In this document: in pieces, positions 31,660 to 35,466 of the stretch
Numbering within the stretch: the stretch's first letter is position 1
How the letters are laid out: each line of letters begins with the position of its first letter
Source: a virus
IMG/VR virus record: IMGVR_UViG_3300027970_000012
Span: 1-64,000 of that record
Strand: one strand, 5' to 3'
DNA: 64,000 nt
The notes under the pieces: model-generated
Databases searched by the model: none
The model's input: only the letters and a program-made list of their open reading frames with translations
What the model was told of the DNA's origin: nothing
Position numbers and translations under genes: made by a program

Positions 31660-32358
31660 TTATGTCAAGTGATTGAGGTTGATAAATGACAACACATCCT
31701 CAATTGGTAAAATATCAGTAAGATGTTCGGTCATTCCCCGACCCATGCTCATTTCAGTTAATGGTGACTTGTATTGAGAAAACTCCTTCAAAACTTTCTT
31801 TTCTAAATTCCATATATCTATAGATTTTCCTGACCACTCTCCAATAAGCTCAGACGTTTCCTTTTTACGATATAGCCAACCTTTATATGACCTACCTATT
31901 TTATAATTACCATTGTGAAGTTTTATAAAGTAAAGTTTATCTGGTCTCTCATTATCTTTTGGTCTCTGAAATCCAGACCAAGGTTGCCCATTAGCTGTTA
32001 TTCTTTTTCTTGCTTGGGAATACTTCTCAAGTGTTTCCTTACTATATGGAGTTGAATTTTTTACTCCTTCGGGTCTCCCACCAACTCCAGGACACTTTTT
32101 ACCCTTGTTCCAGGGTGATTTTTGGTGAGCAGGATTATTTTTTCCAAGTTTTGCCTTTCTACCACAACAAGTTTTACTGGTCTTCATACCGCAAACTAGT
32201 ATTTCTCGTTCACCAGAACATTCACAATATACCTTTATCCTTTCTCTTTTTGTATGAGTTCTATTTTCGCCCCTATATTCCAATTTCCTATTTTCACAAA
32301 GCTTATTTAGTATATCAAATGTGTAAGTTCCTTTCATAAAACTCTCATAAGTTTCCAC
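31660..32358 (-). CDS. Free-standing putative homing endonuclease downstream of psbA
   Basis: CECSG..CC Zn-like motif, NUMOD-like GKNNP/PWNKGKK/YSKETLEKYS, C-terminal LYFIK...YKIGRS...LEKKV...TE (GIY-YIG/T5orf172-like); TATAAATA at 32362-32369. Confidence 0.7.
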   Translation of the reverse strand: METYESFMKGTYTFDILNKLCENRKLEYRGENRTHTKRERIKVYCECSGEREILVCGMKTSKTCCGRKAKLGKNNPAHQKSPWNKGKKCPGVGGRPEGVKNSTPYSKETLEKYSQARKRITANGQPWSGFQRPKDNERPDKLYFIKLHNGNYKIGRSYKGWLYRKKETSELIGEWSGKSIDIWNLEKKVLKEFSQYKSPLTEMSMGRGMTEHLTDILPIEDVLSFINLNHLT

Positions 32359-32370
32359 TAGTATTTATAT

Positions 32371-32394
32371 AAAAGGAGCCCACGTGGGCTCCTT
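32371..32394 (-). terminator. Terminator after psbA
   Basis: Palindrome AAGGAGCCCACGTGGGCTCCTT followed by TT, 7 nt after the stop. Confidence 0.8.
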
Positions 32395-32401
32395 ATGAGC
32401 A

Positions 32402-34575
32402 TTACCCAATTGCTGGAGCAGTAAGGGCAATAGAGGTTTCCTTGGTCATAGCAAGGTCTAAAGGAAAATTATGGGCATTCTTATATTTCTTTAGGTTTCT
32501 GGTATTACTACCAGGATTGGACTATATCATCATCATTTCTGATGCCGGACGCTTAAACCTGTTATTAAGAAAACTATATTCCTCAGGTAGTCTCTGAACC
32601 TTTCTTAGATGTATCTAAGACTTGGCTGCTGATTACCCACTTAGGGTTTCCAGCAATTCATCCGATTTAAAGAGCGCAATACCCAAATCTACGCTCGTGC
32701 ATAACTTCCAGTCCCAAGTTTGCCCGATTAAGAACATCAGCCCAGGTATTAATAACGCGGCCCTGATGGTCTAAAATACTCTGATTGAAATTTAGTCCGT
32801 TCAAATTGAACCCAGACATAAAAATACCAGCAGCGGCAAACCATATCCCGATGACAGGTAGAGCAGCCATTACAAAATGCAGTGAACGACTATTGTTAAA
32901 CGATGCATATTGAAACAATAATCTCCCCAGATATCCATGTGCGGAAACTAAATTATAAGTTTCCTGCTCCTGTCCGAACTTATAACCATAGTTCTGGCTC
33001 TCATTCTCTGTTGTTTCTCTAACAAGAGAGCTAGTGACCAATGAACCATGAACTGAACTGACCAGGGCTCCCCCGAATACACCAATAACTCCAAGTTGAT
33101 GAAACGGATTCATAAGAATATTATGTTCAGCCTGAACACTTTACCCAAACTTTCGTAAGGGAGTGGACTATATCATCACCCCATAATGGGGGCAGGGCGC
33201 TTATTCTGGTTATTAAGAGGACTAAACCTCTCCAGTAGTCTCTGAACCTTTTGGAGGTGTACCTCCAACTTGGATGCTGATTTCCATATTATATTGTTCT
33301 TTTAAAAATTGAATAAATTGTTCTTTTGTATTATTACCATACCCATATTTATTGTGAAATTCTTTATGAATTTGCTTTGTTAAAAGAATTCCATTAGTAA
33401 TATCATATCTTAAATCTGGATATGCGTTCCAACCATATAAATGGTGGACCACTAAATCTTTTTTAGACCCGGTGACGCAACAATAACGTCCAACTCTTTT
33501 CCTGACGGCGTTTATCCAAATATAATAATCTGTTGAGGGATTATGAAAATCTCTACTTAATGTACCTTTGAAAGCTGGGTGATGTTTTCCATATACACCT
33601 TTCAAAGAACCTTTTCGCCCAGTTGCCTTTTTACTTAATTTTTGTCTAGTTTGTACAGAAACAAATTTATTAGTATGCAATTCAGAAATTCTTTTCTTTT
33701 TGCAATGTGGGCAACCTGTTTTAGGTGAGTTTTTATAAGACGCTAAAGATGTTTCAAATTCATTATTACAAGTAAAACAAAGAAACTTTATTTTACTTTT
33801 AACGCAAGTATACCCGTCCATAGAAATTAATTTATGATTTCTAGATTCGGCAATATTTTGAATATGCTCAAAAGAAAGTGGTTTACTCATTTAATATCAT
33901 ACTAACATATTTTATTTATATTAGCACAATATTGAAAGACTGCAAATATAACTTAGGGTTCCAGCAGTTCACCCTATTTAGCCAAGGAAATTACTTTCCA
34001 GGAGTGCCTCAAACTGACACTAACATAAAATTAAATTGACCAGAAATTCCTAGAGGAAATCCATCAGAAAACGAACCTTGTGAAATAGGATAGGCTAGAA
34101 AAATTGCAGTTGCAGCAGCTACGGGAGCAGAATATGCAACAAAAATAAATGGACGCATTCCCAATCGGTATGATAATTCCCATTCACGACCCATATAAGC
34201 ATAAATGGCAATCATAAAATGGAAAACAATGAGCTGATATTCACCACCATTATAAAGCCATTCATCAAGAGACTGTGCTTCCCAGATTGGATATAGATGC
34301 AATCCAATAGCATTGGAACTAGGAATTATGGATGCTGTAATTATATTATTTCCATACATTAAAGAGCCAGAGACCGCCTCCCTAATACCATCCAAATCAG
34401 TTGGTGGTGCGGCAATGAACCCCAAAATAAAGCAAGTAGTAGCAACTAAAGCTGTCGGAATCATCAGAACTCCAAACCAACCGATATACAATCTATTATC
34501 AGTTGAGGTTATCCAGGAACAAAATCGTTCCCAGAGATTTTCGCCAGAACGGCGTGTAGCAATTGTAGAAGTCAT
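32402..34575 (-). CDS. psbA: Photosystem II D1, three exons (34575-34017, 33136-32691, 32479-32402), 360 aa
   Basis: Exons join in frame as ...FMLV-F-QAEHN... and ...[15 protein letters not shown]... Confidence 0.97.
32480..32690 (-). mobile_element. Group I intron 2 in psbA (211 nt, no ORF), between R334 and N335
   Basis: 5' exon ends in U, intron ends in G; P1 GAGCGU/GCGCUC with U-G; P10 UGGGUAUU/AAUGCCCA; core AAUUGCUGGAAA, AAUCAGCAGCC, UUCAGAGACUA, GAUAUAGUCC. Confidence 0.95.
33137..34016 (-). mobile_element. Group I intron 1 in psbA (880 nt) within the F186 codon, carrying an HNH gene
   Basis: P1 AGUGU|C...GGCACU with U-G; terminal G; core AACUGCUGGAA, AAUCAGCAUCC, UUCAGAGACUA, GAUAUAGUCC. 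Confidence 0.93.
33222..33890 (-). CDS. Intron-encoded HNH homing endonuclease
   Basis: CFTC...CPHC Zn finger, NUMOD3-like segment, VVHHL...NGILL...HKEFH; late promoter 33914-33921. Confidence 0.9.
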   Translation of the reverse strand: MSKPLSFEHIQNIAESRNHKLISMDGYTCVKSKIKFLCFTCNNEFETSLASYKNSPKTGCPHCKKKRISELHTNKFVSVQTRQKLSKKATGRKGSLKGVYGKHHPAFKGTLSRDFHNPSTDYYIWINAVRKRVGRYCCVTGSKKDLVVHHLYGWNAYPDLRYDITNGILLTKQIHKEFHNKYGYGNNTKEQFIQFLKEQYNMEISIQVGGTPPKGSETTGEV

Positions 34576-34589
34576 AAGTTAACAAGTAA

Positions 34590-34705
34590 AATGTGTTCAG
34601 GGGAATGAACAATACAGTATTTTCACGCTACCCTCAGGCGTGAATATGAGAGACGTATTTGAATTGCTCATAAGTCTCGGTGAAGCAATAGAAGCCTTTG
34701 TCAGC
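34590..34705 (-). ncRNA. Structured psbA 5' leader, PhotoRC-II-like
   Basis: CCGAGAC...AAAUACGUCUCUCAUA, hairpin UUCACGC-CUGAGGGUA-GCGUGAA, downstream UGUUCA-UUCCCC-UGAACA; family call from recall. Confidence 0.55.
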
Positions 34706-34714
34706 CTTCCAACA

Positions 34715-34749
34715 TATTTATACTAGCAGATGTTACGTTTTGTTACAAT
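34715..34749 (-). promoter_or_regulatory. Composite psbA promoter: host-type -35/-10, late box and HLR1-like direct repeat
   Basis: TTGTAA-N17-TAGTAT; TATAAATA 34715-34722; plus-strand GTTACGTT-TT-GTTACAAT 34732-34749. Confidence 0.6.
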
Positions 34750-34761
34750 GAGTAGAATTAC

Positions 34762-35466
34762 TCAGTCCTTCCGCAACCGATAAGGAATTGTGATTTCCTG
34801 CCATCTATTTTCTATTAGATTCAAGTATGAATCTTTACTACAGGTTCCCCAAGGATAATATCCCAATGACCATCCATCATTCACTTCTACTAAAAGCAAA
34901 TCTGCATCTTTAGTATGACCAACATCAAGACTATACCCAATGGGAGAATCTTTGTAATCTTGAACAATTTGATTCACTTTAGATACATCAATTGTATCAT
35001 TCGGGCCATCATCATACTGTGAGTATCCTAAAATTTTATTTTCAAGAACATAAAATCTAAATTCAGAGGTGAATTCTACTGGGTCAGATACCCACACTGA
35101 AGTGTCTGAATGTATTTCTAACTCTAATTCAGACTTAATATCTCCAGTAAAAGATTTATTTTCTTTTGGTTTAACGAAAAGATGGTCTTCTACTTCTCCA
35201 AATACAGAACTCCAAACATTTCGGTTTAAGTATTTCTGTAAAGACTTTGGATAGTTGATTGGCTTAGGGCAGGTAATGTTCATTACTTCAAAATACTTCT
35301 GAACATACTCAACCGAGCCAATGGGTATGGGTAGATATTCCCCGATGGATTTTGCATCCAAATCTTCATAAGAAATATAAGAGAAGCTATCACTTGCACT
35401 AGAAATAACTACAAATTTTTCTGTGGGTAATATATCTCCTGGCTGTAAAATATAACTAGACATCAT
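34762..35466 (-). CDS. ATP-grasp domain protein (R2K/DUF4343-like)
   Basis: PIGSVEYV, LFVKP, EFRFYV, SLDVG, LVEVNDGWSLG. Confidence 0.8.
   Translation of the reverse strand: MMSSYILQPGDILPTEKFVVISSASDSFSYISYEDLDAKSIGEYLPIPIGSVEYVQKYFEVMNITCPKPINYPKSLQKYLNRNVWSSVFGEVEDHLFVKPKENKSFTGDIKSELELEIHSDTSVWVSDPVEFTSEFRFYVLENKILGYSQYDDGPNDTIDVSKVNQIVQDYKDSPIGYSLDVGHTKDADLLLVEVNDGWSLGYYPWGTCSKDSYLNLIENRWQEITIPYRLRKD

Follow-up and report, generated by a model that had tools for sequence, protein, structure and literature searches.

We analyzed a psbA gene, encoding the photosystem II (PSII) reaction-centre protein D1, on a 64,000-nucleotide (nt) stretch of viral DNA. This stretch, hereafter the window, comprises the first 64 kb of the 91,444-base IMG/VR record IMGVR_UViG_3300027970_000012, which is estimated to be 48% complete. 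Sequence reading and a scripted splice resolved the gene, which lies on the minus strand, into three exons and two introns, and the spliced coding sequence of 1083 nt yields a D1 of 360 amino acids. Exon 1 (34575-34017) runs from M1 to V185 in standard numbering and includes the first base of codon F186; its translation of 186 residues matched solved D1 chains with an E-value of 8e-101. Exon 2 (33136-32691) holds the remainder of codon F186 up to R334, and its 148-residue translation matched D1 residues 187-334 (E 5e-78). Exon 3 (32479-32402) continues from N335 to a glycine followed by TAA, and contains the A344 processing site and a 15-residue extension. Exons 1 and 2 align gap-free to residues 2-185 and 187-334 of solved D1 structures, and residue i of the window protein therefore corresponds to standard residue i-1. 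Both exons matched the Pfam profile PF00124 (Photo_RC) as expected of a D1, with 161 and 113 bits at a cut-off of 27.

Intron 1 (34016-33137, minus strand, 880 nt) lies inside codon F186 and contains an open reading frame (ORF; 33222..33890, minus strand, 222 residues) that resembles an HNH homing endonuclease (Pfam HNH_2, 22.5 bits, cut-off 21; PHROG 1271 HNH endonuclease, 8e-11). Intron 2 (32690-32480, minus strand, 211 nt) is without an ORF and separates codons R334 and N335. The 5' splice site of each intron is preceded by a U that pairs with G in the P1 helix, formed by exon AGUGU with intron GCACU at intron 1 and by exon GAGCGU with intron GCGCUC at intron 2, and each intron ends in G. 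The Rfam Intron_gpI model matched intron 2 with 90.5 bits (E 8e-23), and the 3' core of intron 1 with 32.7 bits, i.e., under the cut-off of 50, because the ORF splits the intron. From covariance model, P1 U.G pair, and terminal G, both insertions are group I introns and are predicted to be spliced. Both junctions read through without a break in intron-less relatives of the D1 clade described below. When contigs from four lake runs were compared with the predicted splice sites, none showed a clean joint lacking the intron; the joints present were few and too short-sided to be of use. The intact D1 that the initial annotation had obtained by in-silico splicing was hence borne out, with three exons giving 360 residues and junctions supported by relatives and solved chains. 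An assembly artefact was ruled out, since contigs from other runs matched window positions 32609-34800 with 0 differences and P0154, a sequence recorded on 12 contigs, agrees letter for letter with the product of the exon-1 ORF. The gene is flanked by a full-length PhotoRC-II RNA motif in its 5' leader (34609..34703, minus strand; Rfam RF01717, 61.9 bits, cut-off 39, E 4e-9) and, directly 3' of the stop codon, by a terminator-like hairpin (32373..32394, minus strand) with a 9-bp stem (-16.7 kcal/mol, z -4.8) and a U-rich tail. This hairpin was seen by direct folding and was not among the results of a consensus terminator scan.

The window D1 retains all 15 functional residues that had been listed as conserved in it (D61, H118, E130, Y161, D170, E189, H190, H198, H215, H272, H332, E333, H337, D342, and A344). 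Of these, the Mn4CaO5 ligands D170, E189, H332, E333, D342, and the A344 C-terminus, the tyrosine YZ with H190, and H198, H215, H272, and H118 are also invariant in the clade. The substitutions reported for it proved equally real, i.e., P66A, G80A, F93L, P111E, W142F, G164S, M172F, T179Q, H195N, F211V, M214V, F255L, F274V, L275M, W278L, T286A, FMSG at 291-294, and F300L. They had been said to fall on normally conserved sites. In 320 canonical D1s, this holds for G164 and W142 (conservation 1.00 each), P66, M214, and H195 (0.99), T179, P111, F255, and L275 (0.98), and F211 (0.97), but G80 (0.88), F274 (0.83), and T286 (0.76) are more variable than implied. Similarly, most substitutions are fixed traits of the clade, but M214V (threonine in the clade), A213S, and L288A occur in the window only and W142F is common to just a few members; L41A, A43V, A51G, and V82I are further changes private to the window. 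Viral D1s reportedly carry the signature R/K-ETT-xxx-SQ/H in the D-E loop. The window D1 reads SQ, not the host SA, after ETTxxE and is viral by this definition. As a separate observation, many clade members (P0011, P0014, and others) read TIHERNSHQF at residues 330-338, compared with VMHERNAHNF in the window and in canonical D1s; this variant alters V330, M331, A336, and N338, which adjoin the Mn ligands H332, E333, and H337.

The window D1 reaches at most 82% identity to any of the 320 canonical D1s, which among themselves have a median pairwise identity of 89%. Its exon 1 product shares 60-80% identity with all 512 GenBank phage D1s (best 77.9%). Members of the clade are 82-92% identical to the window protein and at most 82% to any other D1 compared. 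In a protein search, full-length relatives were found at 84-88% identity (P0011, P0014, P0013, and P0021), with clusters totalling 140 member sequences and contigs of up to 282 kb, and a DNA pattern demanding both F172 and Q179 occurred on 10 IMG/VR contigs and 14 JGI metagenome contigs. In our main tree (IQ-TREE, LG+C20+F+G4, 87 rows), the clade was supported with 100/99, and its stem of 0.242 is the longest internal branch except that of a ligand-less rogue pair. The clade belongs to a larger viral group (100/93) that also contains S-PM2, S-CRM01, and IMG/VR contigs and that stands among Cyanobiaceae D1s; a FastTree analysis of 257 rows confirmed the placement. The nearest sisters are metagenome or viral D1s. 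The phylogeny that had been proposed as a check thus yields a distinct, strongly supported clade, but one nested with the standard Group 4 (G4) D1s and apart from Group 3 (G3) and G0-G2 forms, i.e., outside the microaerobic, far-red, rogue, and ChlF types. A D1 gene on a contig binned to a lake Rubrivivax metagenome-assembled genome (betaproteobacterial; L132 / L195) also fell in the viral D1 group and probably represents a mis-binned cyanophage contig.

To describe the substitutions that set the clade apart, we scored every available D1 at four donor-side and four quinone (QB) sites. Both sets were found in 51 sequences including the window, and neither in 320. Eight sequences had the donor-side set only (P0013, P0135, P0163, P0164, L243, L247, L251, and L252) and four the QB set only (P0017, P0023, P0081, and P0117). 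Intermediate scores did not occur at the donor-side sites; at the QB sites, eight cellular-type D1s had half of the full score. The clade comprises no fewer than 51 D1s, all of them from IMG/VR viral contigs or metagenomes. Its diagnostic changes on the donor side are V58T, A100Q, P111E, V157I, I160A, G164S, M172F, T179Q, L288C, S291F, and A294G. Those surrounding the chlorophylls ChlD1 and PD1 and YZ comprise V157I, I160A, G164S, M172F, T179Q, H195N/S, T286A, L288C, S291F, and A294G. In the QB pocket, the diagnostic changes are M214T (V in the window), I248L, F255L, I259L, F274V, and L275M, together with F211I/V and W278L. Across members, diagnostic residues are fixed at 0.92-1.00. The remodelling of ChlD1 surroundings and QB pocket that the initial annotation described is not one package; the changes form two separable modules, each of which also occurs alone in mosaic genes.

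The lineage is under purifying selection. Within the clade, pairwise ratios of nonsynonymous to synonymous substitution (dN/dS, Nei-Gojobori) were 0.04-0.24 with synonymous sites near saturation, and at equal pS the median ratio of the corresponding proportions (pN/pS) was 0.10-0.12, compared with 0.08 for canonical viral D1s. We found 27 functional residues to be clade-invariant, including all Mn ligands, YZ/H190, the chlorophyll and Fe ligands, E130, S264/F265, Y246, H252, N181, N298, and R334; no residue of the cofactor, Mn4CaO5, or QB hydrogen-bond sites varies within the lineage. The relaxed selection named at the outset as an observation that would speak against a distinct D1 class was not seen. 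A pseudogene or a gene under relaxed selection was ruled out by the low dN/dS, the pN/pS of about 0.1, and the invariant functional residues. The genes next to psbA are T4-like (gp45 clamp, gp46-like nuclease subunit, R2K ATP-grasp protein, phosphoesterase, pyrimidine-dimer glycosylase). Twelve lake-water metagenome runs contained at least 95% of the sampled words of the window, and a second freshwater study contained 26-45%. We therefore propose, with a probability of roughly 0.7, that the gene is a functional psbA of a lake T4-like cyanomyovirus and that its product probably oxidises water and belongs to a distinct viral sub-lineage within the standard (G4) D1s.

The introns offer a route by which such a gene could have changed. 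Introns in the clade occupy three sites, i.e., codons ~93 (L234, L236), 186 (L004, L239), and 334 (L235, L239), and their presence varies. Intron 1 lies at the identical site in L004 and L239, and the HNH ORF recurs in L250 and L251. Between the window and L239 the HNH ORF is 95% identical, with flanking exons just 86-88% identical. In the mosaics with the donor-side set only, a canonical block (~196-285) stands between clade-type flanks, and this block falls between the two intron sites. From the position of the block, the variable introns, and the well-conserved HNH ORF, exon co-conversion during intron homing is a plausible route of module shuffling. Over 182 nt, intron 2 of the window (32480-32690) shares 93% identity with the psbA intron of S-PM2 (L228:2430-2611), which occupies the identical R334/N335 site, whereas the exons around it share only about 73% identity in DNA (~77% in protein). 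This difference points to a recent spread of intron 2 between marine-type and freshwater phages. In four lake runs, the summed contig depth of the intron 2 core (32552-32635) was 10-40 times that of the flanking exons (run X5: 1128 vs 31), and many short contigs of the core diverge on both sides; the core is therefore present in many other loci or phages of these lakes. The psbA of S-SRM01 (L229) is interrupted near codons 93 and 251.

Such mobility invites the explanation that most of the divergence is non-adaptive, i.e., that faster viral drift, together with exon co-conversion or hitch-hiking with the introns at the three sites, produced a protein that works like ordinary D1. The HNH ORF conserved beyond its exons and the swapped block between two intron sites fit this explanation, as do a pN/pS slightly above that of canonical viral D1s and the fact that the new residues mostly resemble the old ones in size or hydrophobicity. 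However, the diagnostic residues stayed fixed although synonymous sites are near saturation, the changes hit sites that are 0.97-1.00 conserved elsewhere (G164, T179, M214, F255, and L275), and they cluster at two cofactor pockets, not beside the intron sites. We hence regard mainly non-adaptive divergence as unlikely.

Phage psbA genes are generally host-derived, and their products can share as much as 95% identity with host D1 (PMC2776144), and the viral group that holds the clade nests among Cyanobiaceae D1s. The window gene might therefore be a recent copy of a D1 or stress isoform from an unsampled freshwater picocyanobacterium, i.e., a like-for-like replacement that is not phage-specific, all the more as freshwater picocyanobacteria are under-sampled and the species scan covers only the matches listed. 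We looked for such a donor in a species-level genome collection (185,579 species), where the best cellular D1 among the matches listed was 79% identical, and in 61 Cyanobiaceae and 8 further genomes, whose D1s were 71-79% identical and none above 79%. Neither the F172/Q179 nor the V274/M275 pattern occurred in any of 401 cyanobacterial genomes sampled evenly across the phylum. Moreover, every long contig with a clade D1 that was examined is an IMG/VR viral record, and the nearest sisters in the tree are not cellular-genome D1s either. A plain host copy is thus improbable. The phage-specific D1 class suggested initially is instead supported by the restriction of the clade to viral and metagenome contigs, by its fixed substitutions and purifying selection, and by the empty genome screen.

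The view that the protein no longer takes part in water oxidation, like rogue D1 and ChlF, or acts as a PSII-blocking D1 during infection draws on the long stem, on changes near YZ and ChlD1 (G164S, H195N, T179Q), and on the existence of D1 paralogues with new roles, two of them without ligands in our table (L191, L192), but it is very improbable, because D170, E189, H332, E333, H337, D342, A344, D61, E65, Y161, H190, N181, N298, R334, and the processing site are clade-invariant, rogue-type paralogues in the same table lost these residues, and the clade lies inside G4.

The literature assigns defined roles to the replaced positions. M172 lies 3.7 A from ChlD1 and, according to computational work, lowers the ChlD1 excitation energy by ~10 meV, i.e., stabilises ChlD1* (PMC7368266). 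T179 hydrogen-bonds the water ligand of ChlD1, and M172 and T179 both stabilise ChlD1+ (PMC7368266). F211, F255, F274, and L275 form the QB niche, which M214 also lines; F255 is a main contributor to binding of the QB head and, like M214, touches bound herbicides (PMC8398153, PMC4030317); the initial assignment of F211, F255, and L275 to the QB site agrees with these papers. On the basis of these roles we infer that the energetics of ChlD1 are changed in the lineage and that its QB pocket is looser and less aromatic, with water oxidation retained. Direction and size of the photochemical effects are not readable from the sequence.

During infection, the psbA transcript would be spliced, and host machinery would insert the phage D1 into host PSII via the repair cycle. 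There it would pair with host D2, because a second Photo_RC gene (psbD) was found neither in the record of the window nor in four other records of the lineage, i.e., in five partial genomes. The phage D1 would be cut after A344 and would still oxidise water. Loss of the Met172 sulphur and a glutamine amide in place of the Thr179 hydroxyl, which hydrogen-bonds the ChlD1 water ligand, should shift site energy and redox potential of ChlD1. Without the aromatic and methionine contacts to the QB head (F255, M214, F274, F211), quinones and inhibitors should bind less tightly, and QB exchange or redox poise should change. The overall result would be a PSII tuned for the infected cell, and not a plain copy of host D1. 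A more far-reaching version, which we put forward tentatively and consider possible at best, is that lake cyanophages evolved a PSII reaction-centre chemistry of their own. Here, Gln179 would replace the Thr-water hydrogen bond or ligate the Mg of ChlD1 and, together with Phe172, Ile157, Ala160, and Ser164, would shift energy and potential of the primary donor; T/V214, L255, V274, and M275 would loosen quinone binding, and recombination, possibly by exon co-conversion during intron homing, would have shuffled the modules between phages. If so, PSII of infected cells would differ in charge-separation and recombination energetics, in quinone turnover, and in sensitivity to QB inhibitors.

Several points weigh against a functional, distinct viral D1. 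Deep nodes of the tree are unreliable, as G3 and rogue sequences nest oddly, and intragenic recombination blurs it. The pN/pS of the clade is ~1.4 times that of canonical viral D1s. The canonical set of 320 D1s was gathered by similarity to the query, so that the conservation figures are approximate, and cofactor distances were taken from papers and not from a model of the window protein. The genomes searched for psbD are partial, 22-58% complete (CheckV) where they are more than a fragment. The host screen is a sample of 401 genomes plus the matches listed in the species collection, so an unsampled host with this D1 is possible, and among the runs searched, no RNA run was listed as containing the window stretch.

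Among auxiliary metabolic genes, viral psbA is the textbook case, and its product is usually regarded as a near-copy of host D1 that sustains the repair cycle. In reviews and a 2026 preprint, cyanophage D1 appears as a close relative of host D1 that falls within host diversity (PMC2776144; 10.64898/2026.07.15.738324). The lineage analyzed here is under purifying selection, yet near-invariant sites are replaced in it, i.e., the ChlD1 tuners T179 and M172 and F255, M214, and L275 at the QB site. In the searchable literature we found no description of the clade or its residues; this D1/D2 preprint (10.64898/2026.07.15.738324), Cardona 2015 (PMC4408414), and the Lake Mendota virus series (10.1101/2024.02.06.579183) are silent on them. 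A viral D1 lineage that derives from G4 and carries two pocket modules, both conserved and exchangeable, thus appears to be new, in so far as it is undescribed in that literature. It suggests that some phages alter host photochemistry and do not merely maintain it. It also shows that the marine picture does not cover freshwater cyanophage D1 diversity, and it offers PSII biophysics natural, pre-tested combinations of reaction-centre mutations.

Beyond psbA, the window is syntenic with the 125-kb viral record behind L239. An R2K-clade ATP-grasp gene (34762-35466, minus strand, 107 bits) lies between the gp45 clamp gene and psbA. Directly downstream of psbA, an ORF of 232 residues (31660-32358, minus strand) gave no Pfam or PHROG match; at the same position, it is 80% identical in L239 and 49% (partial) in L235. 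Searches of the 91-kb record, which covers about half a genome, gave no match for PTOX (PF01786) or hli (PF00504), and the PTOX control matched nowhere.

Among known systems, the window gene is closest to the standard G4 cyanophage D1s such as those of S-PM2 and the freshwater phage S-CRM01, with which it shares the T4-like cyanomyovirus context, the high-light-type E130, all catalytic residues, a PhotoRC-II leader, and the viral branch of the tree. With S-PM2 it also shares an intron at the intron 2 site. In contrast, the window D1 has only ~77% amino acid identity with standard cyanophage D1, and at none of the diagnostic sites of either module do S-PM2, S-CRM01, and P-SSM2 depart from the canonical residue. 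The second, ORF-bearing intron at codon 186 further distinguishes the window from S-PM2, which carries psbD 1.2 kb downstream of psbA, whereas the window has no psbD nearby.

With the microaerobic G3 D1' (T. elongatus PsbA2, Synechocystis PsbA1), the window shares A80, A286, and a changed position 172, which is M172L with P173M in PsbA2 (PMC7368266). The initial annotation had taken G80A and T286A as microaerobic marks. Both indeed belong to the G3 signature A80, L158, and A286 (PMC4408414), but the window shows only two of the three, as it retains F158 in place of L158, and its position in the tree is within G4. The window moreover has E130 and not Q130, and F and not L at position 172. The G3-like paralogues L177, L183, and L198 carry A80, L158, A286, and Q130 together. 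M172L or P173M also occurs among the G3-like paralogues, and those examined lack T179Q and the QB module and are placed elsewhere in the tree. Membership in G3 was ruled out by F158 and the tree position.

Far-red D1 resembles the window in that the surroundings of ChlD1 are changed and M172 is replaced, there by leucine (PMC12121499). The claim that M172 and T179 adjoin ChlD1 and change in far-red D1 therefore holds for ChlD1 tuning by both residues and for the change of M172, but not for T179, of which this paper mentions no change; it defines the type by Y120 and T155 (PMC12121499). As the window keeps F119 and A154 at the equivalent positions, it stands outside the far-red type and membership was ruled out; the far-red parallel drawn initially is weak. 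Nothing in the window points to a setting with chlorophyll d or f. The rogue/ChlF-type paralogues L191 and L192 lost their Mn ligands, whereas the window keeps all of them, and membership in this group was ruled out by the intact ligands and the tree position.

Finally, the same positions are altered in herbicide-resistance and site-directed D1 mutants. F211S, F255Y, and L275F are known herbicide-resistance alleles, and T179 has been replaced in the laboratory (T179H/V in Synechocystis), where such mutants reportedly shift the ChlD1 spectrum. The clade differs from all these mutants in that it holds natural, fixed combinations at many sites and with other residues, i.e., Q179, L255, M275, and T/V214.

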